A stretch of 64,000 nucleotides of DNA, from contig CAZZLY010000004.1 in assembly GCA_964655175.1 (NCBI GenBank), positions 15,465-79,464 on the forward strand, given 5' to 3'. A model generated the notes under the pieces. That model was not told the DNA's origin. It was given only the letters and a program-made list of their open reading frames with translations, and did not search any database. Below, piece after piece: positions 1 to 59,689 of the stretch (position 1 is the first letter of the stretch; each line of letters starts with the position of its first letter). The stretch comes from an uncultured bacterium (GTDB lineage Bacteria > Eisenbacteria > RBG-16-71-46). A program made the translations under genes and the position numbers.

Positions 1-1026
1 ATGTTCACGAACGGCGACAACGACACGTTCCCGCTCTGGTACATCCAGCAGGTCGAGGGCTTCCGCAAGGACGTCCGCATCGTGAACCTGTCGCTCCTCA
101 ACACCGACTGGTACATCCGTCAGTTGCGCGACGAGGAGCCCAAGGTGCCGATCACGCTCGACGACCGCACGATCGACGTGCTCGGCGCCGGTGCGTTCCA
201 GGACGAGTCCGGCAAAATCATCTACACGAACGATTACATGGTGCGGCACATCATGACCAACGCCCTGACCGACAGTGGCTGGGTCAAGCAGCCGTACTTC
301 GCCGTGACCGTGCCGCAGGACTTCGGCTACCAGAAGTACTTCCTGCAGCAGGGCATCGTGCAGAAGGTGCTGCGCGATTCCACGTTGGCCGGGTTGGACG
401 TCGAGGCCACGCGCAAGGCCATGTACGAGACCTACCGCTATCGCGGCCTGCTCACCGCCGACGGTAGCTGGGACCCCAAGGTCTACAAGGACGACAACGC
501 GCAGAACCTGTCGAAGAATTACGCGTTCGCGCACGTGCAGCTGGCGCAGGAGTACAAGCGCCGGCAGGACTTCCCCAAGGCGATCGCCGAGATGGAGCGC
601 GTCGTGCGCATGTTCCCCACGTGGGTCGAGATCCAGTTGCCGTTGGGCGGGATCTACCTGGCGACGGGGGATTCGACGAAGGCGTGGGCGTTCTACGACG
701 ACCTCGTGAAGCGCGCGCCCATGAGCGCCGACGCGCACTACTACCGCGGGGCCTCGCTCGGCTACCGTGACAAGGTCGCCGAGGCCATCGAGGAATTCCG
801 TCGCGCGATCAAGCTCGACCCGGAGTTCGGCTACGCCTACTACGACCTGTACGGCACGCTCATGCAGGCCGGGCGGGTCCCGGAGGCGGCCGACGTCCTG
901 CGCGAGTGGGTGAACCGCCATCCCGACGACCAGCAGAGCGCGCAGCGACTGCGGCAGACCGAGGACCTCATGCGGCAGGGTGGGGGCTCACCGCTGGGCG
1001 ACCCGAACCTCGCGAGGCCGCGCTGA
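1..1026 (+). CDS. DUF2723/TMEM260-like (PMT-like GT-C) protein, C-terminal part with TPR repeats; probably 5'-truncated by the window edge
   Basis: Translation contains the DUF2723 signature GDNDTFPLWYIQQVEGFRKDVRIVNLSLLNTDWYIRQL, followed by TPR-like helical repeats (AWAFYDDLVKRAP, YYRGASLGYRDKVAEAIEEFRRAIKLDP). The expected polytopic N-terminal domain is missing. Confidence 0.55.
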   Translation: MFTNGDNDTFPLWYIQQVEGFRKDVRIVNLSLLNTDWYIRQLRDEEPKVPITLDDRTIDVLGAGAFQDESGKIIYTNDYMVRHIMTNALTDSGWVKQPYFAVTVPQDFGYQKYFLQQGIVQKVLRDSTLAGLDVEATRKAMYETYRYRGLLTADGSWDPKVYKDDNAQNLSKNYAFAHVQLAQEYKRRQDFPKAIAEMERVVRMFPTWVEIQLPLGGIYLATGDSTKAWAFYDDLVKRAPMSADAHYYRGASLGYRDKVAEAIEEFRRAIKLDPEFGYAYYDLYGTLMQAGRVPEAADVLREWVNRHPDDQQSAQRLRQTEDLMRQGGGSPLGDPNLARPR

Positions 1027-1030
1027 TCCC

Positions 1031-1981
1031 ATGACCCACGCCCTCGTCACCGGCGCCGCCGGCTTCATCGGATCCACGCTCACCGACCGTCTGCTCGCGG
1101 ACGGCGTGCGCGTGACCGGCGTGGACCTGTTCACCGACTACTACGATCCGGCACTCAAGCGGCGGAACCTCGAGGGCGCGCTCAAGCACCCGTCGTTCCG
1201 GTTGCTCGAGCTCGATCTGGGGGCGGCCGATCTCGCAGGGCTGCCCGAGGTGGACGTGGTGTTCCATCAGGCGGCGCAGCCCGGCGTGCGCGCGTCGTGG
1301 GGGCGCGAGTTCGCGGCCTACACGCACCACAACGTGCTCGCGACGCAGCGGTTGCTCGAGCGCTACCGGCAGTCGAAGCTGGAGCGGTTCGTGTACGCGA
1401 GTTCGTCGAGCGTGTACGGCGACGCCGAGAGCTACCCGACGCCCGAGTCCGCGCTGCCGCGACCGTTCTCGCCCTACGGCGTGACCAAGCTGGCCGGCGA
1501 GCATCTGGTGCTGCTGTACGGACGCAACTTCGGCCTGCCGGTGGCGGCGCTGCGCTACTTCACGGTGTACGGGCCCCGGCAGCGTCCCGACATGGCGTTC
1601 CATCGTTTCTGTCGGGCGATGCTCCAGGGCGAGCCGATCGCGGTGTACGGCGACGGCAAGCAGTCGCGCGACTTCACGTTCATCGCCGACGCCATCGAGG
1701 CGAACGTGCGCGCGTGGCGCCGCGCCGCGCCGCAGGGCGTGTACAACATCGGCGGCGGTTCGCAGGTCGAGGTGCTCGAGGCCATCCGGTTGCTCGAGGA
1801 GCGCCTGGGCGTCAAGGCGCAGCTGCGATTCGAGGAGCGCCCGCCGGGGGACCCGCTGCGCACGCGTGCCGATTCGGCGCGTCTGGCGGCCGACCTGGAC
1901 TACACCACCACGGTGAGCATCGGCGACGGTCTGGCCGCGGAAGCCGAGTGGGCGCGCACGCTGTACGGAGGTGCCCGATGA
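1031..1981 (+). CDS. SDR-family NAD-dependent sugar epimerase/dehydratase
   Basis: N-terminal Rossmann motif TGAAGFIGS and catalytic YGVTK (YxxxK) motif. ATG at 1031. The stop overlaps the next start (ATGA at 1978). Confidence 0.85.
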   Translation: MTHALVTGAAGFIGSTLTDRLLADGVRVTGVDLFTDYYDPALKRRNLEGALKHPSFRLLELDLGAADLAGLPEVDVVFHQAAQPGVRASWGREFAAYTHHNVLATQRLLERYRQSKLERFVYASSSSVYGDAESYPTPESALPRPFSPYGVTKLAGEHLVLLYGRNFGLPVAALRYFTVYGPRQRPDMAFHRFCRAMLQGEPIAVYGDGKQSRDFTFIADAIEANVRAWRRAAPQGVYNIGGGSQVEVLEAIRLLEERLGVKAQLRFEERPPGDPLRTRADSARLAADLDYTTTVSIGDGLAAEAEWARTLYGGAR

Positions 1982-2919
1982 GCGAGCCGCGCCTGTCCGC
2001 GGTCGTCCCCGCCTACAACGAGGCGGAGAGCCTGCCCGAGCTGCATCGTGAGCTGTGCGCGGCGCTCGACGCGCTGGGGATGACGTGGGAGATCCTGTAC
2101 ATCGACGACGGCTCGCGCGACGGCACCGACCGCGTGATCGAGTCGCTGTGCGCCCAGGAGCCGCGTGCGCGCGGCGTCCTGCTGTCGCGCAACTTCGGCA
2201 AGAGCGCGGCGCTCGCGACCGGCTTCAAGCTCGTGCGCGGCGAGTACGTGTGCACGCTCGACGCCGACCTGCAGGACGACCCCAACGAGCTGCCCAAGCT
2301 GTTCGCGGCGCTCGAGGGCGGGCTCGATCTGGTGTCCGGTTGGAAGGTCAAGCGGCTCGACCCGATCACCAAGCGGCTGCCGAGCAAGCTCTTCAACGCG
2401 GTCACGAGTCGGGTCGCGGGCGTGCGCCTGCACGACTTCAACTGCGGCTTCAAGCTCTACCGGCGCGAGGTCGTGGACGCGCTCGAGGTGTACGGCGAGC
2501 TGCACCGGTTCCTGCCGGCGCTCGCGCACTGGCGCGGCTTCCGCGTGGGCGAGGTGGGGGTGAACCACCGCGCGCGCCGCTACGGCGTGTCCAAGTTCGG
2601 CGCGTCGCGGTTCGTGAACGGGTTCCTCGATCTGCTCACCGCCGCGTTCATCTCGACCTCGGCGCTCAAGCCGCTGCACGTGTTCGGCCGCATCGGCCTG
2701 TTGTTCCTGCTCGCGGGCTTCGGGCTCGGCGGCTGGTTCGTGGCGCAGTGGCTGCACGGCGATCCACTGCGCGTGCGACCGCTCATGTTGTTCGGGGCCG
2801 CTGCGGTGCTGCTGGGCATCCAGTTCATCCTCATGGGACTGCTCGGCGAGATGATCGCGCACCAGTCGGCGCGCGACGATTACCCGGTGCGGCGTCGCTT
2901 CAACCTCGAGCGTCCATGA
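1978..2919 (+). CDS. GT2 polyprenyl-phosphate sugar transferase (GtrB/CsbB/ArnC-like, lipid-linked monosaccharide donor synthase)
   Basis: N-terminal GT2 catalytic domain (SAVVPAYNEAESLPEL, YIDDGSRDGT, DADLQDDP) followed by two C-terminal TM helices, typical of the GtrB/ArnC family. Confidence 0.8.
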   Translation: MSEPRLSAVVPAYNEAESLPELHRELCAALDALGMTWEILYIDDGSRDGTDRVIESLCAQEPRARGVLLSRNFGKSAALATGFKLVRGEYVCTLDADLQDDPNELPKLFAALEGGLDLVSGWKVKRLDPITKRLPSKLFNAVTSRVAGVRLHDFNCGFKLYRREVVDALEVYGELHRFLPALAHWRGFRVGEVGVNHRARRYGVSKFGASRFVNGFLDLLTAAFISTSALKPLHVFGRIGLLFLLAGFGLGGWFVAQWLHGDPLRVRPLMLFGAAAVLLGIQFILMGLLGEMIAHQSARDDYPVRRRFNLERP

Positions 2920-3605
2920 AGGCGTTCGTCCTGGCGGGTGGCCTCGGCACGCGGTTGCGGCCCCGGTTCGGGGACACGCCCAAGCCGTTGGCGCCCCTCG
3001 GTGGCCAGCCGTTCCTGGTGCGCCAGCTCGCGGTGCTCGCGGGCCACGGCGTGCGACACGCGGTGATCCTGGCCGGGCACGGTGCGGCGCAGCTGCAGGC
3101 CGAACTCGGTGACGCGGCCTCGGGCGTGACGCTCGCGTGGTCGGTCGAGCCCGAGCCCATGGGCACCGGTGGCGCGCTCAAGTGGGCCGAGCGGCACGTC
3201 GACGGCCCGGTGCTCGTCGTCAACGGCGACACGCTCGCCGACGGCGACCCGTGGGCGGTCGAGCGGGATCGCTGGGAGCGCGGTGCGATCGGCGCCGTCG
3301 CCCTGTACGAGGTGCCCGATGCGCGCTCGCGCGGCCGCGTCGAGGTGGGGGCCGACGATCGCATCGCGCGCTTCACCGAGAAGGACGACGCGTGGCACGG
3401 CGCCGCGTGGGTCAACGGTGGGGTGTACGCGTTCGCGCCCGCGCTGTGGCGGTTCCTGCCCGAGGGCGCCAGCTCGCTCGAGCGCGACGTGCTGCCCGGG
3501 CTCGCAGCGGCGGGTCGCCTGCACGGACGCCGTTGCACGGGGACGTTCTGGGACATCGGCACGCCCGAGGATTTCGAGCGCGCCGAACGGGAGCTGGCAC
3601 GATGA
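2916..3605 (+). CDS. hddC: Sugar-1-phosphate nucleotidyltransferase (HddC-like, GDP-heptose-type)
   Basis: MKAFVLAGGLGTRLRP nucleotide-binding motif. Short (229 aa) NTP_transferase. Translationally coupled (ATGA) to the following GHMP kinase. Confidence 0.65.
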   Translation: MKAFVLAGGLGTRLRPRFGDTPKPLAPLGGQPFLVRQLAVLAGHGVRHAVILAGHGAAQLQAELGDAASGVTLAWSVEPEPMGTGGALKWAERHVDGPVLVVNGDTLADGDPWAVERDRWERGAIGAVALYEVPDARSRGRVEVGADDRIARFTEKDDAWHGAAWVNGGVYAFAPALWRFLPEGASSLERDVLPGLAAAGRLHGRRCTGTFWDIGTPEDFERAERELAR

Positions 3606-4633
3606 AGACCGACATCCGTTACTACCGCGCGCGCGCGCCGCTGCGTCTGTCGTTCTGCGGCGGCGGCACCGACGTCTCGCCGTACCCCGAGGAGCACGGC
3701 GGCTGCGTGCTGTCGGCGACGATCAATCACTACGCCTACGCCTCGCTGCGCCCGCGCCGCGACTCGCGATTGACGCTCGCCTCGCTCGACTACGACGTCG
3801 TCGCCAAGTACGCGCACGCGCGTCGCGTCAAGTTCGACGGCCAGCTCGATCTGCTCAAGGCGGCGGTCAAGGCGCTCAAGGTGAAGCGCGGCGCCGACCT
3901 GTGGACGCACTCCGACGCGCCCCCGGGCTCGGGCCTCGGGGCCTCGAGCACGCTCATGGTGGCGTTGCTCGCGGTGCTGCGCGAGTGGCTCAAGCTGGAT
4001 CTGTCGGCCTACGACATGGCCGAACTGGCCTACCGCGTCGAGCGTCAGGACCTGAAGCTCGCGGGCGGCCGACAGGATCAGTACGCGGCCTCGTTCGGTG
4101 GCTTCAACTACATCGAGTTCGACGCGCAGGGCACGGTGGTCACGCCGCTGCGCCTGCGGCGCGAGACGCTCGAGGAGCTCGAGTACCGCCTGCTGCTCTG
4201 CTACATGGGGCAGACGCGGCAGAGCGCCAAGATCATCGAGCGTCAGACGAAGGGCTACACGAGCGGCCGCAAGAGCACCATCCAGGGCCTGCACGCGCTC
4301 AAGGCGCAGACCGCCGAGATGAAGCGCGCGCTGCTGCTGGGGCACGTGGACGGGTTCGGCGAGCTGTTGCATCAGGCGTGGCTGCACAAGAAGAAGCTCG
4401 CGGAGGGCATCTCGACGCCGATCGTCGACAAGATGTACGAGGTCGCCCGCAAGGAGGGGGCGCTCGGCGGCAAGATGACCGGCGCCGGCGGTGGCGGCTA
4501 CTTCCTGTTCCTGACGCGTTTCGACCGTCGTCATCGCGTGTCGGCCGCACTCGAGAAGCTGGGCGGGCAGGTCGTGCCGTTCCAGTTCGAGTCGCGCGGC
4601 GTGCGGTCGTGGTCGGTCGCGCACGAGCGCTGA
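3602..4633 (+). CDS. hddA: GHMP-family sugar kinase (HddA-like D-glycero-D-manno-heptose 7-phosphate kinase type)
   Basis: GHMP motif PPGSGLGASST; C-terminal KMTGAGGGGY motif; 343 aa. Confidence 0.65.
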   Translation: MKTDIRYYRARAPLRLSFCGGGTDVSPYPEEHGGCVLSATINHYAYASLRPRRDSRLTLASLDYDVVAKYAHARRVKFDGQLDLLKAAVKALKVKRGADLWTHSDAPPGSGLGASSTLMVALLAVLREWLKLDLSAYDMAELAYRVERQDLKLAGGRQDQYAASFGGFNYIEFDAQGTVVTPLRLRRETLEELEYRLLLCYMGQTRQSAKIIERQTKGYTSGRKSTIQGLHALKAQTAEMKRALLLGHVDGFGELLHQAWLHKKKLAEGISTPIVDKMYEVARKEGALGGKMTGAGGGGYFLFLTRFDRRHRVSAALEKLGGQVVPFQFESRGVRSWSVAHER

Positions 4634-4637
4634 CGCC

Positions 4638-5807
4638 GTGCGCACGCCCCCCGCGGAAGGCACCCGCGAGCGTCGCATCGCGCTCGTGGGCCCGGTGCAC
4701 CCGTGGCGCGGGGGACTGGCGCAGTATCTGCAGCTGCTGGGCGAGACGCTGCAGTCGCACGCCGAGGTGCGCGCGGTCACGTTCACGCGGCAGTATCCCG
4801 ACTTCCTGTTCCCGGGCACGAGCCAGTTCGATGCCGACGCGCCGCGACCGCGCTTCCCGACCGAGGCGATGCTCGATTCGATCGGCCCGTGGACCTGGCG
4901 GCGCGCCGCCGCGCATCTCGAGCGTTTCGCACCGGGCGCGGTGATCCTCAAGTGGTGGATGCCGTTCTTCGCGCCGGCGTTCGCGTCCACGGTGGGGCCG
5001 CTGCGCAAGCGCGGCACGCGCGTGATCCTGGTGTGCGACAACCTCGTGCCGCACGAGCCCAAGCCGTACGACCGCGCGTTCTCGGATTGGATGCTGCGCA
5101 ACTCGGACGGCTATCTGGTCATGAGCGACTCGGTCGAGCGCGACCTGGACCGGCTCAAGCCCGGCGCGCCGCGCCGTCGTGTGGCGCATCCGTTCTACGC
5201 GCAGTTCGATCGCGGCCGGCACACGCGCGAGTCGGCGCGCGCGGCACTCGGCCTGACGGGTGAGGTCGCGCTGTTCTTCGGCTACGTGCGCCATTACAAG
5301 GGGCTCGACACGCTGCTCACCGCGTGGAAGCAGGTGCGTGCCGAGCGACCCGGCGCGACCCTCGTGGTCGCGGGCGAGTTCTACGAGAAGCCCGAACTGT
5401 ACGAGACGCTCGCGCGCGAGGCGGGCGGCGTGCGACTGCTCAACCGCTACATCCCCGACGACGAGGTCGAGGCGCTGTTCCGTGCCACCGACGTCACCGT
5501 GCTGCCGTACCGTTCGGGCACGCAGAGCGGTGTGACGCACGTGGCGTACGCGCTCGGTTCACCCGTCATCGCGACGCAGGTGGGCGGCATCACCGAGACG
5601 GTGCACGACGGCTCGACCGGGCTCACCTGCGCGCCCGAGGACCCGGACGCGTTGGCACGCACGATCGTGCGCTTCTTCGCCGACGACCTGCGCGGCACCA
5701 TGGCCGGGCCCATCGCGGCGCTGCGCGAGGCGCACTCGTGGGAGACGCTCGCGCACGAGACGCTGGGACTCATCGACGACCTGCGGCCGGGACGGGGGTG
5801 GGCATGA
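4638..5807 (+). CDS. GT4 glycosyltransferase
   Basis: GT4 C-terminal domain (EX7E-like region ...GVTHVAYALGSPVIATQVGGITETVHDGSTGL). GTG start at 4638. Confidence 0.8.
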   Translation: MRTPPAEGTRERRIALVGPVHPWRGGLAQYLQLLGETLQSHAEVRAVTFTRQYPDFLFPGTSQFDADAPRPRFPTEAMLDSIGPWTWRRAAAHLERFAPGAVILKWWMPFFAPAFASTVGPLRKRGTRVILVCDNLVPHEPKPYDRAFSDWMLRNSDGYLVMSDSVERDLDRLKPGAPRRRVAHPFYAQFDRGRHTRESARAALGLTGEVALFFGYVRHYKGLDTLLTAWKQVRAERPGATLVVAGEFYEKPELYETLAREAGGVRLLNRYIPDDEVEALFRATDVTVLPYRSGTQSGVTHVAYALGSPVIATQVGGITETVHDGSTGLTCAPEDPDALARTIVRFFADDLRGTMAGPIAALREAHSWETLAHETLGLIDDLRPGRGWA

Positions 5808-7348
5808 GCCGCACCGCATGGACGATCGCACTGGCGGCGTTCCTGACGTTCGCCGTCACCGGCGGCGGTCGCATCGTGGGCAGCGACGAGGTGACCATGT
5901 TCACGCTCGCGCGCACGATGCTGCACGGCGGCCTCGCGGTGCCCGAGGGCGCCACGCTGCAGGGCCCCGACGGCCGCTTCTACAGCAAGAACACCGCCGG
6001 ACAGGCCGTGCTCGCGATGCCGCTCGTGGCGTTGGGCGACGGGGCGGCCGCTGCCGCCGGCTTCGCGGGCGAGCGGCGCGAACTCGCGGCGCGGTTCGTG
6101 GCGTCGTTCTTCAACGCGTTCGTGGCGGCGCTGCTGCTCGCGGTGCTGTACGACGCGTTGCGTCGTCTGCGCGTGAACGTGGCCGCCGCGTTCGCCGCCA
6201 CGGTGCTGTGCGGCTTCACGACGCCGCTCTGGGTGTACGCCAAGAGCTTCATGGCCGAACCGCTCGAGGCGCTGGGACTGCTGCTCGCGCTCACCGGTGC
6301 GGCGAGCGCGGGGGCGGCCCCGTCGCCGATCGAGACGCGCGCGGGCGAGCGGCGCGCGGCCCTGGGCGTGTTCCTCGCGATCTCGGCCAAGTTGGGCGTG
6401 GCGCCGCTCGCGCTTTTCTGCCTGACGGCCGCCGGGTTCAAGCGACCGCGTGCCTGGGTGCTGCCGATCGTCGGCGTGGGGTTGGCGCTCGCGGTCCATG
6501 CGCTCTACAACGCGGCCCGGTTCGGGACCCCGTTCGAGACCGGTTACGGCGCGCAGGCGTCGGCGAGCGCGTTCACGACGCCGCTGCTGGTGGGCCTGTA
6601 CGGACTGCTGCTGTCGTCGGGCAAGGGTGTGGCGTGGTTCGCGCCGGCGCTGTGGCTCGCGCCCTGGGGCGTGGCCGCCATGGTGAGGTCGCGTCAGCAC
6701 TCCGACGCCGCACGCCGCGGCGACGACGTGCGCCGCGCGGCGTTCGCGCTGCTCGCGGCGTGGGCCGTGGGGCTGTTCCTGTACGGCCGCTTCCAGCACT
6801 GGGGCGGCGACGGCTCGTGGGGGCCGCGCTATCTCGTGCCGCTGCTGCCACTGGCGTTCCTCGCGGTGGGCTTCGCGCTCGAGGGCGCCTCGCGCGTGCG
6901 CCGTCGCCTCGCGTGGGCGCTCGCGGCGCTCGGGTTCGTCGTCACGCTCGGGGGCGTGGGCATCTACTTCGGTGCGCAGATGCGCGAGGCGGGGGACTAC
7001 CCGTACACGCTCGCGCTCGAGGATCCGCACTTCATGGAGGCGAGCCACTGGAACCCGCGCTACACGCCGATCGCGGGCCACTGGCGCATGCTGTCGCGCA
7101 ACGTCGGCGAGCATCTGCGCGGCGAGGCCCCGGTGCTGGGTGAGAAGGGCACGCCCGACCCGCGCACCGGGATCTCGCCCGAGGAGCAGCGCACGCTGCT
7201 GCATGCGATCGACGTGTGGTGGCTGTACGCGGGTTACGCCGGCCTCGCGCGCGGGCCGCTGTTCGCGGTGGCGTTGCTGCTCGCGGGGGCGGCGGTGTGG
7301 GCGTGGACCCGGGCGTGGCGCGTCGCGCGCGCGGAGTCGCGCGCATGA
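5804..7348 (+). CDS. Polytopic GT-C-type glycosyltransferase (PMT/ArnT-like, uses lipid-linked sugar donor)
   Basis: At least 10 predicted TM helices. Conserved acidic DE motif in the first extracytoplasmic loop (GSDEVTMF), as in the PMT/ArnT GT-C families. ATGA overlap with the upstream gene. Confidence 0.65.
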   Translation: MSRTAWTIALAAFLTFAVTGGGRIVGSDEVTMFTLARTMLHGGLAVPEGATLQGPDGRFYSKNTAGQAVLAMPLVALGDGAAAAAGFAGERRELAARFVASFFNAFVAALLLAVLYDALRRLRVNVAAAFAATVLCGFTTPLWVYAKSFMAEPLEALGLLLALTGAASAGAAPSPIETRAGERRAALGVFLAISAKLGVAPLALFCLTAAGFKRPRAWVLPIVGVGLALAVHALYNAARFGTPFETGYGAQASASAFTTPLLVGLYGLLLSSGKGVAWFAPALWLAPWGVAAMVRSRQHSDAARRGDDVRRAAFALLAAWAVGLFLYGRFQHWGGDGSWGPRYLVPLLPLAFLAVGFALEGASRVRRRLAWALAALGFVVTLGGVGIYFGAQMREAGDYPYTLALEDPHFMEASHWNPRYTPIAGHWRMLSRNVGEHLRGEAPVLGEKGTPDPRTGISPEEQRTLLHAIDVWWLYAGYAGLARGPLFAVALLLAGAAVWAWTRAWRVARAESRA

Positions 7349-11514: not shown

Positions 11515-11535
11515 ACAACCGAAAGGCGGAAGACC

Positions 11536-13611: not shown

Positions 13612-13615
13612 CGCC

Positions 13616-14740: not shown

Positions 14741-14761
14741 TCCCCCGGAGAACGAACCCCG

Positions 14762-17964: not shown

Positions 17965-20261
17965 ACCGCCTGCGCGGACTCCTGCTCGGGATCGTGCTCG
18001 GCCTCGCGGTCGCGCCCGCCGTGCGCGCCCAGGGCCAGTGGTCCACCTATCTGCACATGGCCTCGTGCAACGACCTGCTGCCGCTGCGCGACACGGTCTG
18101 GGTCGCCACCGGCGAGGCGGGCCTGCTGCGCTACGTGCGCAGTCAGGACGCGTGGAGCTCGATCACGCGCGAGCCGAGCGGGCTGGCGAACAACAACGTC
18201 ACCGCGATCCGCTTCGATCGCAGCGGCAACCTGTTCTGCGCCGTGCCGGGCAAGGGCGTGAGCCGCCTCGACACCGACGGGCGCTGGTCGCTGCTCAACG
18301 CCTTCGACGGTCTGCCCTCCGACACCGTGCTCACCATGCGAGCGCAGGGCGACTCCATGTGGATCGGCACGACGCGCGGGCTCGCGCTGTGGGACGGCAA
18401 CACGGTCGCGGGTTCGATCCCCGACCTCGGCACGCCGTCGCCGTTCGTGGACGACCACATCAACGGCTTCGCGATCGTCGGCGACAGCGTGTTCGTGAGC
18501 TCGCCGGTGGCCGTCTACCTGGGGCTCTTGTCGCAGCGGCTCGCCAACTGGAAGCGGTTCGACACCGGGCTGCCGATCGGCGCGGCGCGCAACATCCGCG
18601 GCCTGGCGACCGACGGGCACGACGTGCTGGCGTTGGCGAGCGGGTTCAATCCGCAGAACCCCGTGCAGGGCGTGTACACCAGCTTCCGCTGGTTCAAGCG
18701 CGACTCGGTCTGGATCAGCGACTTCCCGTCGTTCTCGAGCGTCCGGCGGTTGCGCGACGACTTCGGCATCGTGCTCGCGACGACCGCGGGCGGCGGCGTG
18801 TTCCGGCATCGCAACGGCGGCGGCTGGGACGCGGTCGCCAACTCGCCCAGCACCGACAACGCCGATCTCGCCCTGCTCGACGTGGCGGCCGATCCCGACG
18901 GCAAGGTGTTCGCCTCCACGGGCGGCGTGCTCCTGGAGGAAGCGCCGAGCGTGTGGACCGTGCGCACCCCGCCCGGCCCCGTGGCCAACAACAGCCGCAA
19001 CGTGCTGTGGGCGAACGGTTCGGTGTACGTCTCGTACGCGGGCGAGGGCGTGAGTCGTCTGCGCGCCGGCCAGTGGCGCAACTACCGCGCTTCCGTGGGC
19101 TGCGTCGGGGCGGGCTGTGACACCACGTTCGAGAACGTCGCGTTCCCCGCCGGCATGGGACTCGATCCGCTGGGACGCAAGTGGGTGAGCAACTGGTCGG
19201 GCCCGCTCACGCGCATCGACGACGAGGTCTCGCCGCCGAGCTTCGGGAACTTCACGTGGGCCGCGTCGTCCGACCCCTCGCTGCAGCATCTGCACTCGTG
19301 CATCCACGCCATCGCCGCCGACGGTCGCGACGGGGCGGCCTCGGGCATGTGGATGGGCCTCGACTCGGACATCATCGGGTGCAGCGGCTGTTCGACGGGC
19401 GACCCGCAGGGCATCGACCTGTACGACCTCGCGGGCAACTTCATCCGCAACTACGGGCTCACCTATCCGGGGATCAAGAACGGCCTCGTGCGCGGGCTCG
19501 AGTACGACGCGCGCACCGGCCGCATGTGGGTGGGCTACAAGCAGAGCGGTCTCTCGACCTTCCTCGTCGAGGGCGCGCTCGGCAGCGACATCGCGCTCGA
19601 CGACGTGACCGCCGCGGGCGACCTCGACGTGTTCGGTGTCGCCCTGCACGGCGACTCGCTGTGGGTGCTCGCGTCCGAGGGTCTGCGTCGCTTCCGCGCG
19701 TCGAGCCAGTCGCTCGCGGCCTCGTTCACGATCGCCGCGCCGCCCGTGCTCGCGGGCATGCACCCGATCGACACCGCGCCCGACGGCAGTGTGTACGTGG
19801 GCACCGAGGGCGGGCTGCGCGTGTACCGTCGCGGCCAGGCGCCCGTGGACTACACGCCCGACAACTCGCCGCTCGCGGACCTCTCGGTGCGCGCGGTGCG
19901 CGTGGACCCCACCGGCGTCGTGTGGATCGCGACCGCGGGCGGCGTGAACCGCTTCGACCCCAGCTACGTCCCGCCGGCGCCGCCGCGGCTCACGTCGCTC
20001 GCGATCGACCTGTATCCGAACCCGGTCTGGCGCACGGGCGCGGGCTTCACGCTGCGGCTCAAGGGCGGCGGCACGACGTACGGGGGTGAGATCCTCGATC
20101 TGACCGGCCGGGTCGTGCATCGCTTCGCCGCCGACGGCAACGGTCGCGTGATGTGGGACGGCCGCGACGCGGACGGTCGCGGCGTCGAGCCCGGCGTGTA
20201 CTTCGTGCGCGCGCGCAGCGGTGGCGCCGAGGCGACCGCGCGCGTGGTCGTGCTGCGGTAG
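17961..20261 (+). CDS. Secreted beta-propeller (two-component-regulator-propeller-like repeat) protein with T9SS-type C-terminal sorting domain
   Basis: Signal peptide MNRLRGLLLGIVLGLAVAPAVRA|QG. Repeated Reg_prop-like blades (LLRYVRSQDAW, MWIGTTRGLALWDG). The C-terminal roughly 85 aa begin LYPNP and end VYFVRARSGGAEATARVVVLR, matching the T9SS C-terminal domain / FlgD-Ig-like pattern. Confidence 0.7.
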   Translation: MNRLRGLLLGIVLGLAVAPAVRAQGQWSTYLHMASCNDLLPLRDTVWVATGEAGLLRYVRSQDAWSSITREPSGLANNNVTAIRFDRSGNLFCAVPGKGVSRLDTDGRWSLLNAFDGLPSDTVLTMRAQGDSMWIGTTRGLALWDGNTVAGSIPDLGTPSPFVDDHINGFAIVGDSVFVSSPVAVYLGLLSQRLANWKRFDTGLPIGAARNIRGLATDGHDVLALASGFNPQNPVQGVYTSFRWFKRDSVWISDFPSFSSVRRLRDDFGIVLATTAGGGVFRHRNGGGWDAVANSPSTDNADLALLDVAADPDGKVFASTGGVLLEEAPSVWTVRTPPGPVANNSRNVLWANGSVYVSYAGEGVSRLRAGQWRNYRASVGCVGAGCDTTFENVAFPAGMGLDPLGRKWVSNWSGPLTRIDDEVSPPSFGNFTWAASSDPSLQHLHSCIHAIAADGRDGAASGMWMGLDSDIIGCSGCSTGDPQGIDLYDLAGNFIRNYGLTYPGIKNGLVRGLEYDARTGRMWVGYKQSGLSTFLVEGALGSDIALDDVTAAGDLDVFGVALHGDSLWVLASEGLRRFRASSQSLAASFTIAAPPVLAGMHPIDTAPDGSVYVGTEGGLRVYRRGQAPVDYTPDNSPLADLSVRAVRVDPTGVVWIATAGGVNRFDPSYVPPAPPRLTSLAIDLYPNPVWRTGAGFTLRLKGGGTTYGGEILDLTGRVVHRFAADGNGRVMWDGRDADGRGVEPGVYFVRARSGGAEATARVVVLR

Positions 20262-20279
20262 GGCGGTGCGGGGCCACCG

Positions 20280-21299
20280 GTGATCCCCCCGAACGCGGCG
20301 ATCCTCGACCGCGTCCCCGAAGGTTGGGACGCGTTGCTGGCGAGCGACCCCGGCGCCACGCCGGCGCATCGACCGGCGCTGTGGGAGGCGTTCGCGAGCG
20401 CGCTGCCCGGTGTGGCGTGGCGCGTGATCGCGGTGCACGAGGGCGGACGGCTCGCGGGGGGCGCGGCCGTCATGCGCACGCAGCGCGGTCCGTGGCGGGA
20501 GCTGCACGCGCTACCGTGGATGCTGCCCGGTGCGCCGCTCGCCACGCCCGGGACGCACGCGCGCGTGGACCGCGCGGTCGCGCACGGCATCGCCGGACTC
20601 GCGCGTGAGTGGCGCGTGTGCGGCGGGACGTGGTCGCTCTATCGTGCGGACGGTCCCGTGACCGACGAGACGACGCTCGCGCACGTCGCGGGACGCACCC
20701 GGCACGTCGAGACGGCGGTGCTGCCGCTCGGTGCGGGCCTCGAGACGCTGCGCGCCGGGATCGCGCGCAAGCAGCGTCAGGCGCTCGATCAGGCGCTCGC
20801 GCGACCGTTCACGTTCGCCGAGGAGCCCGCCGCGCTCGACGAGGCGTACGCCCTGCATCTCGCGCAGTCGCGCGGTTGGGGACACCATCGGCCGCTGCCG
20901 CTCGAGTTGTCGCGACGACTGCTCGCGGCGCGCGACGCGCACGGTCCCGTCGCGCGGCTGTACACGCTGCGCACCGCGGCGGGGCTGGCCACCGCGACGC
21001 TCGTGCTCGAGGGCGCGCACGAGACGTTCCTGTGGTGGGCGGGCACGCACGTGAGCGCGCGGCGTTCAGGGGCGTTCCTGCGGCTCGTGTGGGAGATCGC
21101 GCGCGTGGCCGAGTCGCAGGGTCGTCGGCGCGTCAATCTGGGCGCCAGTCTCGACCTGCCGTGGGTCGCCGCGTTCAAGCAGTCCCTGGGGGCCGAGGTC
21201 GTGACGCATCCGGTGCGCGTGCTCGACGGTGCGACCGCCCCGTGGCCGCTGCGCGCGTGGGCGGTGCGGCGCGCGGCGCGCATGCTGGGGTCGGCATGA
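20280..21299 (+). CDS. FemAB/GNAT-superfamily (BioF2/CelD-like) acyltransferase
   Basis: Acetyltransf_6-like C-terminal region (LYTLRTAAGLATATLVLEGAHETFLWWAG). GTG start. Weak assignment. Confidence 0.5.
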   Translation: MIPPNAAILDRVPEGWDALLASDPGATPAHRPALWEAFASALPGVAWRVIAVHEGGRLAGGAAVMRTQRGPWRELHALPWMLPGAPLATPGTHARVDRAVAHGIAGLAREWRVCGGTWSLYRADGPVTDETTLAHVAGRTRHVETAVLPLGAGLETLRAGIARKQRQALDQALARPFTFAEEPAALDEAYALHLAQSRGWGHHRPLPLELSRRLLAARDAHGPVARLYTLRTAAGLATATLVLEGAHETFLWWAGTHVSARRSGAFLRLVWEIARVAESQGRRRVNLGASLDLPWVAAFKQSLGAEVVTHPVRVLDGATAPWPLRAWAVRRAARMLGSA

Positions 21300-22375
21300 G
21301 GATCGCCACGCTCGGCAACGCGTCGGTGGGACACACCGTGAACTGGGTGTCGTGGTTCCGTGCGCAGGGTCACGAGGTGCGGCTGTTCTCGCTCGAGCCC
21401 GCGCCCGCGGGATTCCCCGACGTCACCCCGCTGCCCGCCGCCTCGCTGCCGGGCGTGCTGCGCTATCCGCTCGCGGTGCCCCGGTTGCGGCGGGAACTCG
21501 CCGCGTTCGCGCCCGACCTCGTGGATGCGCACTACGTGCCCAACTACGGGTTCATGGCCGCGCTCGCGGGCCGCCATCCGCTGTCGATCGCCGCGTGGGG
21601 GAGCGATCTGCTGCTCGCCGCGCACGCGGGCCCGTTGCAGCGCGCCCGTGCGGCGTTCGCGCTCGAGCGTGCCGACCTGGTGATCTGCGACGCCGACAAC
21701 CTGGCGGCCGCCGCACGCCGCGTGGGTGCGCGCGCCGACACGGTGCTCGCCTGTCCGTGGGGCATCGACCGGGCGCGCTTCGTCCCGGCCGCCACGCGCA
21801 CCCCGGGACTGATCGTCTCGACGCGCATGCACGAGGACGTCTACGACCTGCCCACGGTGATCGAGGCGGTCGGCCGCGTGCTCGGTGAGCGACCGCACGC
21901 GACGTTCGTCGCGGTGGGCGACGGTTCGCGTCGTGCGGCCCTCGAACGCCTCGCCGCGGAGCGACTGCCCGCGGGGCGCTGGCGCTTCACGGGCCGGATC
22001 GCGCCCGCCGAGATGGCGGCGCTGCTCGCGCGCGCCGAGGTCGCGATCTCGGCGTCGCGTTCGGATTCCACGTCGCAGTCGCTGCTCGAGAGCATGGCGT
22101 GCGGCGCGGTGCCGGTGGTGAGCGACCTCGAGGGGAACCGCGAGTGGGTCGCCGACGGCGACGGCGCGCGACTGTTCGCGGTGGGCGATGGCGCCGGCGC
22201 GGCGAACGCGCTACGCCAGGTGCTCGACGATGCGGCGTGGGCCGCCACCGCCCGCACGCGCAACGCGGCGGTGGTCGCCGCGCGCGGCGACGCGGGCCGC
22301 AACATGGCGCGCATCGCCGAGGCGTTCGCGCGACTCGTCGCGGACCACGGCCGCCGCGGGGGGCGCACCGCATGA
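21296..22375 (+). CDS. GT4 glycosyltransferase
   Basis: GT-B fold. C-terminal ...SRSDSTSQSLLESMACGAVPVVSDLEGNREWV (E-x7-E region). Confidence 0.8.
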   Translation: MRIATLGNASVGHTVNWVSWFRAQGHEVRLFSLEPAPAGFPDVTPLPAASLPGVLRYPLAVPRLRRELAAFAPDLVDAHYVPNYGFMAALAGRHPLSIAAWGSDLLLAAHAGPLQRARAAFALERADLVICDADNLAAAARRVGARADTVLACPWGIDRARFVPAATRTPGLIVSTRMHEDVYDLPTVIEAVGRVLGERPHATFVAVGDGSRRAALERLAAERLPAGRWRFTGRIAPAEMAALLARAEVAISASRSDSTSQSLLESMACGAVPVVSDLEGNREWVADGDGARLFAVGDGAGAANALRQVLDDAAWAATARTRNAAVVAARGDAGRNMARIAEAFARLVADHGRRGGRTA

Positions 22376-23661
22376 AGCGCCTGCTCGTGATGAGCTACTT
22401 CTATCCGCCGCTCGCGGGCGGCGGCGTGCATCGCGTGCTGGCGTTCACGGATCATCTGCGCGCGCACGGTTGGGCGTGCACCGTGATCTGCGCCGGCGAG
22501 CACGACTACTGGGTGCGCGACCCCTCGCTGTCGGCGCGCGTGCCCGCCGAGACCGAGGTGGTCCGCGTGAGCGGGGGCAGCGCGCTCGCGACGCTGCTGC
22601 GCAGCGGTCGTGCGGCGCGCACCGATGGACGTCGCTCGAGCGCGGGCTTCGCGCTGCTGCGTCCGCTCTCGGAGTGGTTCCTGCTGCCCGATTCGTACGT
22701 GGGCTGGTCGCACCGCGCGGCGCGTGCGGCGGCCGCTCGCGTGGCCCATGGCGACGTCGATGCGATCCTGAGTTCGTCGCCGCCCGACAGCGTGCATCTG
22801 GCCGCGGGCCGGGTGGCGCGCGCGAGCGGGCTGCCGTGGGTCGCCGACTTCCGCGATCCGTGGATCGGGCTCAACTTCAAGCGTCCGCCCACGCCGTGGC
22901 ACGCCGCACGTCAGCGTGCGCTGGAGTCGCGCGTGACCGGCGGGGCGGACCTGGTGCTCGCGGCCTCGCGCACGCACCACGACGAACTCGTCGCGCGGGT
23001 CGAGGGCCGCCCGCGACAGGTGCTGCACCTGCCCAACGGCTTCGAGCCCGCGCCCGAGGCGGCGAGCGAGGCGATGCCGTCGACGCACTTCACCGTGGTG
23101 TTCACCGGGACGTTGTCGGGCATGCGCGACGCGGGCACGCTGCTCGACGCGGTCGACCGCGTCGTGCGCGGGACGCCCGAGGCGCGCGGTCGGCTGCGCG
23201 TCGTGCTCGCCGGACCGCTCGACGATGAATGGCCGAAGCGCGCGCACGCGCTCGGGCTCGACGACGTCGTGCACTGGCCGGGCCCGTTGCCGCACGCCGC
23301 GACGCGGGCGCTGCAGCGTTCCGCCGACGTGCTGCTGCTGTGGAAGCCGCAGGGGGAGGGATTCCGAACCATGGTGCCGGGCAAGACCTACGAGTATCTC
23401 GATAGCGGCCGGCCGGTGGTCGCACTGCTGCCCGCCGGCGACGAGGCGGCCGGGCTCGTCGAACGCGCCGGTGGCACGCGGCTCGAGCCCGGGGACGCCG
23501 CGTCGCTCGCGCGCGAACTGGGGGCACGGTTCCAGCGTTGGCGCGACGGCGAGCGCATCGCCGCCGCGCGGCCCGCGTGGCTCGACGAGCATCGTCGCGA
23601 TCGGCTCGCGGCACGTCTGGCGGAATCACTCGCGGCGCTGCCGTCGCGGGGGCGCGCATGA
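22372..23661 (+). CDS. GT4 glycosyltransferase
   Basis: N-terminal MSYFYPPLAGGGVHR (GT4 N-terminal signature) and C-terminal ...PGKTYEYLDSGRPVV. Confidence 0.75.
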   Translation: MKRLLVMSYFYPPLAGGGVHRVLAFTDHLRAHGWACTVICAGEHDYWVRDPSLSARVPAETEVVRVSGGSALATLLRSGRAARTDGRRSSAGFALLRPLSEWFLLPDSYVGWSHRAARAAAARVAHGDVDAILSSSPPDSVHLAAGRVARASGLPWVADFRDPWIGLNFKRPPTPWHAARQRALESRVTGGADLVLAASRTHHDELVARVEGRPRQVLHLPNGFEPAPEAASEAMPSTHFTVVFTGTLSGMRDAGTLLDAVDRVVRGTPEARGRLRVVLAGPLDDEWPKRAHALGLDDVVHWPGPLPHAATRALQRSADVLLLWKPQGEGFRTMVPGKTYEYLDSGRPVVALLPAGDEAAGLVERAGGTRLEPGDAASLARELGARFQRWRDGERIAAARPAWLDEHRRDRLAARLAESLAALPSRGRA

Positions 23662-25178
23662 CCGGGACGCGACTCGAGCGCGCGGCGTGGCTCGTCGCGC
23701 TGCTGTTGTGCGCGGGGCTCGCGTGGCCGCTGCGCGACTACGTCACCGACGACACGTTCATCCATCTGCAGTACGCGAAGCATCTGGCGGCCGGGCAGGG
23801 CTTCGTGTTCAACCCGGGCGAGCCCGTCTACGGCAGCACCAGTCCGCTCTGGGTCATGGCGCTCGCGACCGGCATGGCCATGGGGATCGAGGGCCTGCTC
23901 GTCTCCAAACTGCTCGGTGCGCTCGCCACGCTGGCGGCGCTGTTCCTGTGGTGGCGACTCGCGCAGCAGACGATCGCCGACGCGCGCCTGCGCGCACTGT
24001 CGCTGGTGGTCTGGGCCGCGCACGCGTGGATGTCGCGCTGGTCGCTCTCGGGCATGGAGACGCCGCTCGCGGTCGCGCTCGTGCTGGGCGGTTGGGTGGC
24101 GTACACCGCCACCGAGCGTTGGGGCGAACGGCCGCACGCGGCGGCACTGCTGTGGGCGCTCGCGGCGCTCACCCGGCCCGAGTGCACGCTGCTGCTCGTG
24201 CTGTGGGCGGGGCTGCTCGTCGTGCAGCACGGGCCGCTCGAGGGCGCGCGCCGTGCGCTGCGCGGATTGTGGCCGGCCATGCTCGTCGAGGGCGCGTGGC
24301 TCGCGTTCGCACGGGTGTACTTCGGATCGTTCTGGCCCAACACGCTGGCGGCGAAGGCGGCCGGTGGGGTGGGGCTGGCGTACCACCTCGAGCAGTGGCT
24401 GCGGCAGGGCGCGATCGTCGGGGCGACCGATGCGACGCTGCTGCTCGTGCTCGTCGTGTCGGGGGTCGTGCTCGTGCGACGCGGCGGGCCTCGCACGGCC
24501 ACGCCGTGGACGCACGCGTTGCCGTGGGCCTGGCTCGTGCTCGTGCCCGTGCTGTATTCGCTGCGCGGGGTGCCGGTGCTGTCGCGCTATCTCGTGCCGC
24601 TGCTGCCGGTGCTGGCGTGGCTCGGGTGGTGCTCGCTCGACCGCGCGCTCGTCGGCGCGCGCGCGCGTACGGTCGTCACGATCGCCGGGTTCGTCACGGT
24701 GATCGCGGTGGCGCAGAACGTCGTCGCGTGGCAGCGCCTCGTGCGACCGCAGGTGACGTCGTTCAGCGCGGGCATGCGCGCGAGCCTCATCCCGTGGGGC
24801 CACTGGTTCGAGCGTCACGCCGCACCCGATGCGATGATCGCCGCGCCCGACATCGGTGCGCTCGGTTACTACGGGCAGCGGCGCGTGCTCGACCTGGCGG
24901 GGCTCGTCACGCCCGCGATGGTGCCGGTGCTCGAGCGCATGCCGCAGGAGGACGCGACCGCGCGCTTCGCGTTCGAGTCGTTCGCGCGACCCGAGTTCCT
25001 GGTCGATCGCGCGCCGCGCGCGTGGGATCTGCTCGAGCGCAGTCCGTGGCGTGCGGCGCTCGTGCCCATCGGGCAGGCGTCGCTGCCCAATCTGGGCGTG
25101 GCGCGCCCGGATTCCGCGGTCTATTCGTTCTATCGCATCGATTGGGCGCAGTACGATTCGCTCGCGATGCAGCGCTGA
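23658..25178 (+). CDS. Polytopic GT-C-like membrane glycosyltransferase (ArnT/PMT_2/arabinosyltransferase-like)
   Basis: About 11 TM helices. First-loop acidic motif YVTDDTFIH. C-terminal extracytoplasmic domain. Last gene of the co-directional cluster. Confidence 0.6.
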   Translation: MTGTRLERAAWLVALLLCAGLAWPLRDYVTDDTFIHLQYAKHLAAGQGFVFNPGEPVYGSTSPLWVMALATGMAMGIEGLLVSKLLGALATLAALFLWWRLAQQTIADARLRALSLVVWAAHAWMSRWSLSGMETPLAVALVLGGWVAYTATERWGERPHAAALLWALAALTRPECTLLLVLWAGLLVVQHGPLEGARRALRGLWPAMLVEGAWLAFARVYFGSFWPNTLAAKAAGGVGLAYHLEQWLRQGAIVGATDATLLLVLVVSGVVLVRRGGPRTATPWTHALPWAWLVLVPVLYSLRGVPVLSRYLVPLLPVLAWLGWCSLDRALVGARARTVVTIAGFVTVIAVAQNVVAWQRLVRPQVTSFSAGMRASLIPWGHWFERHAAPDAMIAAPDIGALGYYGQRRVLDLAGLVTPAMVPVLERMPQEDATARFAFESFARPEFLVDRAPRAWDLLERSPWRAALVPIGQASLPNLGVARPDSAVYSFYRIDWAQYDSLAMQR

Positions 25179-25299
25179 CGCGCATGCGGGAGAGGGGCCG
25201 TGCGGGAGTGCACCGCACGGCGCGCACGCCGGGAGCCCACCGGTGACGCGACTGCACGGGCGTGCAGTGCGTCCTTCGTCGCCCCGATGATCTTTTGCT

Positions 25300-25328
25300 T
25301 TGACGCCTCGCCGGGCTTGGCTTATGTT
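25300..25328 (+). promoter_or_regulatory. Sigma70-type promoter of the dcw operon (TTGACG-N17-TATGTT)
   Basis: -35 TTGACG at 25300..25305, a 17 nt spacer, -10 TATGTT at 25323..25328. It sits 75 nt upstream of the mraZ ATG in the only sizeable intergenic gap (225 nt) before the dcw cluster. Confidence 0.5.
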
Positions 25329-50534: not shown

Positions 50535-50554
50535 CGGAGCGGACCGGTCCGCGC

Positions 50555-58270: not shown

Positions 58271-59689
<1,419 letters not shown>

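Follow-up and report, generated by a model that had tools for sequence, protein, structure and literature searches.

The present analysis concerns a stretch of 64,000 nucleotides of DNA, hereafter the window, from an uncultured bacterium of the Candidatus Eisenbacteria (GTDB lineage RBG-16-71-46; GenBank assembly GCA_964655175.1, contig CAZZLY010000004.1, positions 15,465 to 79,464 of the forward strand), and in particular the block of glycan-related genes at positions 1-25178. Because of the high G+C content of the window (~71%), genes were called by their third-position GC (GC3). Exactly 20 genes, numbered g1 to g20 (Table 1), were called within the block, all on the plus strand, and adjacent genes overlap by 1-10 bases at 13 of the 19 junctions, in agreement with the twenty co-directional and mostly overlapping genes reported by a first-pass annotation that a model had made from the letters of the sequence. 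After correction of the starts of g6 (4638, chosen to fit orthologs of 386-395 amino acids), g12 (11536) and g14 (14762), the largest internal gap measures 21 bases. Base composition is uniform over the block, and a scan detected no terminator-like sites between its genes. A scan for sigma-70 promoters and terminators inside the cluster gave no excess over shuffled sequences, all of the hits being intragenic and the scans possibly not suited to this phylum.

The first-pass annotation let the cluster start at the window edge, but it begins four genes earlier and comprises about 24 genes, 20 of which lie inside the window. The left boundary was read from related loci in GTDB genomes, an exact look-up of g2 having returned just a contig of 2.9 kb. 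In all of these loci the four upstream genes encode, from the nusB side towards g1, a metallophosphoesterase, a methyltransferase, a GT4 glycosyltransferase (GT) and a flippase-like LPG_synthase_TM protein, and they are preceded by nusB, ribH, ribBA, ribE and ribD. On the right, the cluster is bounded by mraZ and the division and cell wall (dcw) operon, after a gap of 224 bases between g20 and mraZ. The terminator-like hairpin, the promoter-like site and the direct repeat in this gap point to a separate promoter for dcw. In the divergent related locus L053 (GCA_016235265.1), a similar GTGGGG repeat is found directly 5' of mraZ (20639-20654), and these repeats may be MraZ operator boxes. The co-directional run extends beyond the cluster: 38 genes on the plus strand at 1-47096 start with the glycan cluster, take in dcw and end with a TPR protein gene, recG and a zinc-ribbon gene, with a weakly scored minus-strand call of a 71-amino-acid open reading frame as the sole break, and in related loci the run begins farther left, at ychF and the rib operon. 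For the sister phylum Gemmatimonadota, core and cell-division genes are reported to reside together in a conserved region with high strand bias (PMC11237797).

Table 1. Genes and sites of the glycan cluster, followed by neighbouring features of the window. Bit scores are from Pfam unless another model is named; TM, transmembrane; CTD, C-terminal domain; T9SS, type IX secretion system; SAM, S-adenosylmethionine.
Feature	Position	Strand	Assignment and supporting matches
g1	1..1026	+	C-terminal soluble domain and TPR of a predicted TMEM260/DUF2723-type GT-C; 5' end cut by the window
g2	1031..1981	+	NAD-dependent sugar epimerase/dehydratase (SDR); Epimerase 188 bits
g3	1978..2919	+	Membrane-anchored GT2, GtrB/ArnC/CsbB/PgfS type
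g4	2916..3605	+	Sugar-1-phosphate nucleotidyltransferase; NTP_transferase 86.8 bits
g5	3602..4633	+	HddA-like GHMP-family sugar kinase; GHMP_kinases_N/C
g6	4638..5807	+	GT4 (GT-B) glycosyltransferase; Glyco_trans_1_4 93 bits
g7	5804..7348	+	Polytopic probable GT-C, PMT/Alg9-like; DE motif after TM1
g8	7345..8256	+	GT2 with one C-terminal TM segment; Glyco_tranf_2_3 57.9 bits
g9	8253..9065	+	SAM methyltransferase with C-terminal zinc ribbon; Methyltransf_23/11; CRECGEH...CPYC tail
g10	9065..10075	+	Divergent GT4-like; sub-threshold Glycos_transf_1/GT4 matches only
g11	10072..11514	+	Wzx-type MOP flippase; ~11 TM segments
g12	11536..13611	+	Glutamine-dependent AsnB-type amidotransferase, WbpS-like; Asn_synthase 255 bits and GATase_7
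g13	13616..14740	+	GT4, TuaH-like; Glyco_trans_1_4 40 bits; TuaH 85.5 bits, below cut-off
g14	14762..17248	+	YfhO-family GT-C glycosyltransferase
g15	17248..17964	+	Soluble GT2 of 238 amino acids, DPM1/Ppm1/PpgS type
g16	17961..20261	+	Secreted PorZ-like protein; signal peptide, two Reg_prop beta-propellers, T9SS type-A CTD
g17	20280..21299	+	Fem/VimA-like GNAT, probable aminoacyl transferase; Acetyltransf_6 (PF13480) 52.8 bits, over cut-off
g18	21296..22375	+	GT4; Glyco_trans_1_4 77 bits, Glyco_trans_4_2 57 bits
g19	22372..23661	+	GT4; Glyco_trans_1_4 39.6 bits
g20	23658..25178	+	GT-C glycosyltransferase, AftB/ALG9-like by structural model
g20-mraZ gap	25276-25290	+	Terminator-like hairpin, consensus match
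g20-mraZ gap	25300-25328	+	Promoter-like site TTGACG-17-TATGTT, consensus match
g20-mraZ gap	25337-25353	+	GTGGGGAGCAGTGGGGA direct repeat (GTGGGG)
STAS-domain gene	25849-26310	+	Between mraZ and rsmH, inside dcw
FtsI-type class B penicillin-binding protein	27755-29914	+	dcw gene with C-terminal PASTA domains
DUF6851 and vanadium-chloroperoxidase-like (VCPO_2nd) protein	47178-48962	-	T9SS Por_Secre_tail; second T9SS-type cargo in the window
MFS transporter, GT4, acyltransferase	49272-52593	-	Acyltransferase of lipid A type (HtrB/PatA family); last two genes overlap
Response regulator	58271-59689	+	Sigma-54-dependent
ParA/MinD-family ATPase	60897-61793	+	
Sigma-70-family factor	61804-62700	+	Regions 2, 3 and 4

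The cluster encodes four predicted GT-C enzymes, three of them wholly inside the window, and none of the proteins that had been proposed as GT-Cs turned out to be an unrelated transporter when domains and structures were checked. For g1 the window holds the C-terminal 341 amino acids, in which Pfam matched TPR; a related contig (L001) lengthens it by 192 amino acids that include TM helices, and the syntenic orthologs, 867-909 amino acids long, carry TMEM260_N (PF11028), TMEM260_2 (PF28495) and TPR. Identities range from 42 to 98% over 44 loci, a full-length ortholog 72% identical to g1 carries TMEM260_N, and one ortholog matches the catalytic region of human TMEM260 (9rql, E 1.7e-23). From these full-length syntenic orthologs and the 9rql match, g1 is predicted to be a member of the TMEM260/DUF2723 family, as had been suspected from the TPR fragment at the window edge. 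The last gene of the cluster, g20, had no match in Pfam, NCBIfam or PDB sequence searches; some of its homologs (n=1055) carry the JGI name arabinofuranosyltransferase, and its N-terminal T30-D31-D32 is invariant in 41 sequences. Its AlphaFold2 (AF2) model has a pLDDT of 93, and the top Foldseek match is AftB (9dlf, E 5e-9, TM-score 0.59-0.62), then ALG9, with ALG12, ArnT, AftA, STT3/PglB and also AftD as further matches. Judged by this model g20 is a GT-C enzyme, as annotated, and the fold rules it out as the missing Wzy or WaaL.

For the other two enzymes the sequence signals are more local. The YfhO call for g14 exceeds the Pfam threshold (PF09586, 36.3 bits; cut-off 28.5), the alignment being limited to residues 742-790, that is, the C-terminal 49; the protein has ~10 TM segments and a weak C-terminal match to PgfM1 in NCBIfam, its orthologs also match YfhO, and a PDB sequence search gave nothing useful. 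The PMT-like DE motif that had been pointed out in g7 is indeed invariant (D30 and E31 after TM1, in 36 sequences), and the family gives weak PMT and GT22 matches: at E<=0.01, GT22 matches 9 and PMT 6 of the 36 sequences, and g7 itself scores 20 bits against GT22, under the Pfam cut-off of 23.8 bits. With at least nine TM segments and an NCBIfam match of 34.5 bits to the putative GT family LA_3751/LA_3752, g7 is probably a GT-C glycosyltransferase; PDB sequence searches with g7 and with its family profile returned no match. Close paralogy of g7 and g20 was considered and dropped, as hhalign gave just one alignment of 6.9% probability, in the N-terminal DE/DD region.

Two GT2 enzymes resemble the polyprenyl-phosphate-monosaccharide synthases that the first-pass annotation had recognized, each with NCBIfam matches that stay below cut-off. 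The sequence of g3 (Glycos_transf_2, 117 bits), whose best NCBIfam matches are ArnC (186 bits) and PgfS (138 bits), both under their equivalog cut-offs, fits the GtrB/ArnC/CsbB-type architecture of a GT2 domain followed by two C-terminal TM helices. The protein g15 (Glycos_transf_2, 111 bits; zero TM segments) matches AglJ (67 bits), PpgS (63.6 bits) and a dolichyl-phosphate (Dol-P) hexose transferase (52 bits), and its role as a polyprenyl-phosphate synthase is argued for by the overlap of its start with the stop of the YfhO gene g14. The block contains two GT-A and GT-C pairings, g14/g15 and g1/g3. The arrangement recalls the multi-component (three-component) transmembrane glycosylation systems CsbB/GtcA/YfhO, GtrA/B/C, ArnC/ArnT and Pgf of Streptococcus mutans, in which the polyprenyl-phosphate sugar produced by a GT2 enzyme is translocated by a flippase, and a GT-C enzyme then transfers the sugar outside the membrane. 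The pairing of g14 with g15 is comparable to the adjacent csbB and yfhO genes BSU08600/BSU08610 (PMC8035078), g3 has the TMEM260-like g1 and a gene for a flippase-like protein in its vicinity, and the epimerase gene g2 stands beside g3 in the manner of pgfE. Unlike in these systems, four predicted GT-Cs and two predicted donor synthases share one operon and are joined to a Wzx oligosaccharide line, no GtrA-family flippase was matched among the 24 cluster genes, and the host is presumably a diderm of the FCB (Fibrobacteres-Chlorobi-Bacteroidetes) group rather than a Firmicute. Candidate flippases, judging from their sequences, are the Wzx protein g11 and the upstream LPG_synthase_TM protein.

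On the cytoplasmic side, the nucleotidyltransferase g4 and the kinase g5 account for the HddC/HddA-like module for nucleotide sugars that had been proposed; the SDR epimerase g2, 73-100% identical across loci, was absent from that parts list. The best NCBIfam match of g4 is a mycobacterial-type mannose-1-phosphate guanylyltransferase (128.7 bits), with HddC at 93.8 bits and all matches below cut-off, and g5 scores 289.7 bits with the HddA model (cut-off 600). A GDP-heptose pathway for this pair was not adopted, since both GmhA and GmhB are missing and the scores stay under the cut-offs. Seven cytoplasmic GT4 and GT2 transferases had been counted in the block; the present count is six in the window besides the polyprenyl-phosphate synthases (g6, g8, g10, with 62-87% identity across loci, g13, g18 and g19), and a seventh enzyme, a GT4, is encoded upstream of it. 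The flippase g11 passes the cut-offs of both Polysacc_synt_3 (51.8 bits) and Polysacc_synt (46.5 bits). Domain matches also agree with the three modification enzymes that had been named, the AsnB-type amidotransferase (g12), the methyltransferase with zinc ribbon (g9) and the FemAB/GNAT-like protein (g17). From its corrected start g12 begins with the N-terminal nucleophile (Ntn) motif MCGIAG; it exceeds the cut-off of TIGR01536 (412 bits) and reaches 370 bits with the XrtA/PEP-CTERM amidotransferase model TIGR03108, under the cut-off of 817. Over nearly its full length g17 matches TIGR03019 (pepcterm_femAB) with 24.6 bits, under the cut-off of 260, and it weakly matches the aminoacyl-tRNA-dependent peptide synthase 9wqy (E 1.3e-3). 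No priming phosphoglycosyl transferase (Bac_transf/WecA-type), Wzy, WaaL, Wzz/Wza/Wzc, ABC exporter or LCP ligase was found with Pfam and NCBIfam among the 24 cluster genes.

Between the second donor synthase and the Fem-like gene lies g16, which had been noticed as a secreted protein with a T9SS CTD. Signal peptide and type-A CTD are both present, the tail (YPNP...VVVLR) scoring 23.4 bits with NCBIfam Por_Secre_tail (TIGR04183) at a cut-off of 23, and the protein resembles PorZ beyond that. Its AF2 model (pLDDT 88) has PorZ (5m11) as best fold in the PDB, with an E-value of 1.3e-28 and full-length TM-scores of 0.59/0.61 versus 0.35-0.39 for hybrid two-component system (HTCS) sensors in Foldseek, and the family profile matches 5m11 at E 1.4e-23. 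As modelled, g16 has the architecture of PorZ, namely a signal peptide, two seven-bladed propellers and a CTD, with PorZ as the nearest structure. Since it falls under the NCBIfam PorZ cut-off, it is called PorZ-like here and not a member of that family. The names of its distant end-to-end relatives are uninformative ('ligand-binding sensor domain-containing protein'). A hidden Markov model of the CTD of the g16 family also detects the T9SS tail of the DUF6851 protein of the window (E ~1e-6). The PorZ likeness near WbpS- and VimA-like genes, the phylum-wide core and the rib-nusB/dcw setting are features that the first-pass annotation had missed.

Homologs that carry taxon names place the window in Candidatus Eisenbacteria. 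The whole-block comparison that the first-pass annotation had called for shows that dozens of Eisenbacteria contigs, recovered from independent samples, have largely the same gene order. Genes g1-g15 occur in the same order on the independent contigs L002 and L004 (g7 67% and 80% identical), and 12 GTDB loci with full flanks show largely the same order of g1-g11, a few genes being undetected in some of them (e.g., g8 and g10 in L035). Genes g13-g20, followed by mraZ, the STAS gene, rsmH, ftsL, the penicillin-binding protein gene and murE, are in order in L006, L051 and L052, with identities of 53-56% for g20 and 37-45% for g16. The divergent L053 retains the Wzx, AsnB, GT4, YfhO, GT2, PorZ-like and Fem-like genes, with the AsnB, PorZ-like and Fem-like genes still linked and its changes confined toward the 3' end of the cluster. 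The PorZ-like gene occupies the same slot in L006, L051, L052 and L053, and on a still more distant contig it remains directly 5' of mraZ. Across loci, identities of the cytoplasmic enzymes amount to 62-94%, values within the range of, or higher than, those of MraY (73%) and MurE (60%), while g16 and g17 are the fastest-evolving genes of the cluster. Content and order are nearly constant down to ~40-55% protein identity, and the block is not a chimera: its gene order is kept across Candidatus Eisenbacteria with minor exceptions. The operon equals the adjacent cell-division genes in conservation, so that its product probably belongs to the core of the Eisenbacteria envelope.

The departures from this order are few. 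In L053 the region 7926-20532 holds an extra GT2 of 684 amino acids before the PorZ-like gene and a protein of 480 amino acids without a Pfam match, and its 3' half further contains a second gene of Wzx type and, on the opposite strand before mraZ, a methyltransferase gene; this variant 3' half points to differences between lineages in the distal part of the glycan. In L052 a gene for a Kelch-type beta-propeller of 868 amino acids (2807-5413, minus strand), opposite in strand to the cluster, separates the AsnB gene from the GT4 gene; no other interruption was seen at this level of divergence. Several close homologs from third-party annotation (TPA) metagenome-assembled genomes bear the labels Verrucomicrobiia, Candidatus Udaeobacter, Acidoferrales, Sulfotelmatobacter or Saccharimonadales; their identity to Eisenbacteria proteins is 55-70%, at least L018 begins with the same genes, and the odd taxon labels are probably binning or labelling errors.

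Taken as a generic scheme, an envelope-glycan assembly line working in two compartments, inside and outside the membrane, is very probably what the cluster encodes. Gene content, the modelled GT-C and PorZ-like folds, operon-like packing and phylum-wide synteny are what was observed; the substrates, the order of the steps and the link to T9SS are what we infer, and they would be as follows. The enzymes g2, g4 and g5 would provide activated sugars, from which the cytoplasmic GT4 and GT2 enzymes g6, g8, g10, g13, g18 and g19, together with the upstream GT4, would assemble a lipid-linked oligosaccharide. The methyltransferases would modify this oligosaccharide, g12 may convert a uronic acid to a uronamide and g17 may join an amino acid to a sugar amine, after which g11 would flip the product to the periplasmic face. 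In parallel, g3 and g15 are predicted to produce two polyprenyl-phosphate monosaccharides. Their translocation may be the task of the LPG_synthase_TM protein, whose gene directly precedes g1, and on the outer side of the membrane the predicted GT-Cs g1, g7, g14 and g20 would draw on them to lengthen or decorate the glycan. Since no polymerase is encoded, a defined oligosaccharide is the probable product, and not a repeat polymer. Finally, g16 would bind the glycan at the cell surface and present it for the attachment of T9SS cargo. This role is proposed by analogy with PorZ of Porphyromonas gingivalis, which binds anionic lipopolysaccharide (A-LPS) and hands it to the PorU sortase (PMC8545088).

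The reading that we prefer, if tentatively and with somewhat more doubt than confidence, is that the block supplies 20 of the ~24 genes, and so most, of a core operon for an envelope glycoconjugate between ribH-nusB and mraZ/dcw, with a T9SS-linked role for the PorZ-like protein. That the product anchors T9SS cargo is, by analogy, possible yet doubtful, and the full version, in which the cluster is the biosynthetic operon for a covalent cargo-anchoring glycan or glycolipid with porZ embedded, an ER-like two-stage route (a cytoplasmic lipid-linked oligosaccharide, then four periplasmic GT-C steps that two polyprenyl-phosphate sugars feed) and an aminoacyl-uronamide linking sugar formed by the AsnB and Fem-like pair, would be rather unlikely to hold in every part. 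The analogy derives from P. gingivalis, in which the amine-bearing sugar linking cargo and A-LPS is an aminoacyl-uronamide; its formation requires WbpS, an AsnB homolog that matches TIGR03108, and VimA, which is pepcterm_femAB-like and matches TIGR03019 (PMC7468200). The Eisenbacteria cluster shares with the A-LPS/Wbp-Vim and PorZ system a PorZ-like double propeller with CTD, a WbpS-like AsnB, a VimA-like GNAT, a Wzx and GT4s. Unlike in P. gingivalis, the PorZ-like gene sits among glycan-biosynthesis genes, WbpA/B/E/D, VimE, WbaP, WaaL and PorU/V/Q are absent from the cluster, and the P. gingivalis genes treated in PMC7468200 are GTs and Wbp/Vim enzymes, none of them termed GT-C.

Several observations weigh against a T9SS-linked product. 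Although g12 and g17 match the same two models as WbpS and VimA, they do so under the equivalog cut-offs, and the matches to TIGR03108, TIGR03019, TIGR03088 and TIGR04063 (stp-type GTs included) are all weak and below cut-off. Of the Wbp/Vim linking-sugar pathway the cluster contains the WbpS-like g12 and the VimA-like g17 only, with no dehydrogenase, aminotransferase or CE4 deacetylase, and neither WbpA/B/E/D and the VimE (CE4) deacetylase nor a priming transferase, WaaL or PorU/PorV/PorQ were found in the window or the upstream genes. AsnB and FemAB-like pairs also occur in PEP-CTERM/exosortase exopolysaccharide (EPS) loci unrelated to T9SS. For g16, the PorZ model (NF052228) gives 57.9 bits against a cut-off of 260, with residues 630-752 aligned, and HTCS sensor propellers outscore PorZ in sequence-profile searches; because of the low PorZ score and the higher-scoring HTCS propellers, g16 may be no more than a T9SS cargo that binds glycans. 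The TPR-bearing, TMEM260-like g1 points to a protein acceptor and not a glycolipid, no paper in the library searched mentions both Eisenbacteria and T9SS, and the host phylum is uncultured.

An alternative that we consider unlikely is a conserved lipoglycan or secondary wall polymer made by the logic of phosphatidylinositol mannosides, lipomannan and lipoarabinomannan (PIM/LM/LAM) or of arabinogalactan, with cytoplasmic GT4s acting on a membrane lipid, a flip and extension by GT-Cs, and with the PorZ-like protein as a mere glycan-binding surface protein without a role in T9SS cargo. The lack of a priming phosphoglycosyl transferase and of Wzy is as expected for such a pathway, and the best named matches of the GT4s include MshA and glucosamine-phosphatidylglycerol synthase, which transfer sugars to inositol or lipid. 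Further points in its favour are the mycobacterial-type guanylyltransferase match of g4, the PpgS match of g15 and the AftB, AftA and AftD matches of g20, and conservation at housekeeping level next to dcw fits a core wall component. Like mycobacterial and corynebacterial LM/LAM and arabinogalactan synthesis and the ALG pathway, the cluster would combine cytoplasmic GT-B and GT-A enzymes, a flip and GT-Cs with donors made by DPM1/Ppm1-type GT2s; the best fold matches of g20 are AftB, ALG9 and ALG12, and some members of the g7 family match the Alg9-like GT22. However, all named matches are far under the family cut-offs, with no orthology at the sequence level, and the cluster is without a phosphatidylinositol synthase, the decaprenyl-phospho-arabinose pathway (UbiA/DprE), an LCP ligase, an ABC exporter and oligosaccharyltransferase components. 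Unlike those pathways it forms one operon beside dcw in a phylum of the FCB group, and a lipoglycan offers no explanation for why the PorZ-like, AsnB and Fem-like genes remain located together.

General protein O-glycosylation appears quite unlikely as the whole explanation. Here the TMEM260-like g1, possibly with the YfhO protein g14 or g7, would move sugars from polyprenyl-phosphate donors onto Ser/Thr of exported proteins, the oligosaccharide of the GT4 and Wzx proteins would be transferred to or elaborated on proteins, and possible targets would be T9SS cargo or the cell-division and wall proteins encoded next door. Human TMEM260 is a protein-specific O-mannosyltransferase (PMC10214176) and has the layout of the full-length g1 orthologs, with an N-terminal catalytic region and a C-terminal TPR. 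The series g1-g2-g3 of a GT-C, an epimerase and a GtrB-type GT2 resembles the pgf operon of S. mutans (PMC5856776), a likeness to which the PgfS match of g3 and the weak PgfM1 match of g14 contribute, and the missing Wzy fits a defined oligosaccharide. Against this, an acceptor protein or sequon was not identifiable, no bacterial DUF2723 protein has a demonstrated function, and bacterial GT-Cs of YfhO and PMT_2 type mostly decorate polymers (PMC8035078); the PorZ-like gene and the AsnB and Fem-like pair are also left without explanation. The earlier proposal of a protein O-mannosylation-like or glycoconjugate-decoration system is possible, with the TMEM260-like TPR enzyme and the Pgf-like g2-g3 as the only features that favour proteins, and no sugar identity is readable from the sequences. 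Protein O-glycosylation, a lipoglycan and the two-compartment assembly line are not mutually exclusive.

An ordinary Wzx/Wzy locus for O-antigen, capsule or EPS with Gtr-like side-chain modules is highly improbable. Wzx, GT4 and GT2, sugar-nucleotide, AsnB and methyltransferase genes are common in such loci, and g12, g17 and the GT4s weakly match models from PEP-CTERM/XrtA EPS loci. However, Wzx is the only hallmark of a Wzx/Wzy locus present, the one unassigned polytopic protein, g20, having a GT-C fold, and such loci are normally hypervariable, whereas the enzymes here are as conserved as the dcw genes. The missing primer, Wzy, WaaL, Wzz/Wza/Wzc and export genes together with this housekeeping-level conservation argue against a classical O-antigen, capsule or EPS locus, and since LCP genes were not found either, the first-pass view that the cluster matches neither these nor teichoic acid loci stands. 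A PEP-CTERM/XrtA exosortase EPS locus was likewise rejected, as no exosortase is among the Pfam-annotated genes. Chance juxtaposition of unrelated, separately transcribed islands, to which the mixed functional make-up and a few short intergenic gaps might point, is dismissed as exceedingly improbable in view of the 13 of 19 stop/start overlaps, the uniform composition and the same gene order, largely, in independent samples, the block being conserved as a unit and not as non-conserved islands.

No prior description of this cluster was found in the literature. Extracytoplasmic glycosylation by GT-Cs is usually seen as single three-component modules, with mycobacteria, Firmicutes and eukaryotes well studied; new here are four predicted GT-Cs, two predicted donor synthases and a full cytoplasmic oligosaccharide line in one phylum-conserved operon, which moreover adjoins dcw and embeds a PorZ-like gene. 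The PorZ look-alike near WbpS- and VimA-like genes offers a testable hypothesis for the anchoring of T9SS cargo outside the Bacteroidota. If this hypothesis were true, the cluster would be the first defined pathway for a T9SS attachment glycan outside the Bacteroidota and would give bacterial TMEM260/DUF2723 enzymes their first assigned role. The cluster also provides a genomic context for the function of these bacterial homologs, which are relatives of a human disease gene.

The neighbouring genes of the window contain further features. The STAS-domain gene is unusual for dcw clusters and is inserted at this position in every Eisenbacteria locus covering the region (L006, L051, L052, L053 and L054). 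The PASTA domains of the FtsI-type protein are more typical of Gram-positive proteins of PBP2x type. The lipid A-type acyltransferase and the T9SS-tailed proteins of the window suggest a diderm envelope. The GT4 and acyltransferase pair resembles a PimA/PatA-like glycolipid module, and this GT4 is the nearest paralog in the window (25-33% identity) of the GT4 found upstream of g1 in related loci. Farther downstream, past the sigma-54-dependent response regulator gene, the ParA/MinD-family ATPase gene and the directly following gene for a sigma-70-family factor are arranged in an FlhG-FliA-like manner.

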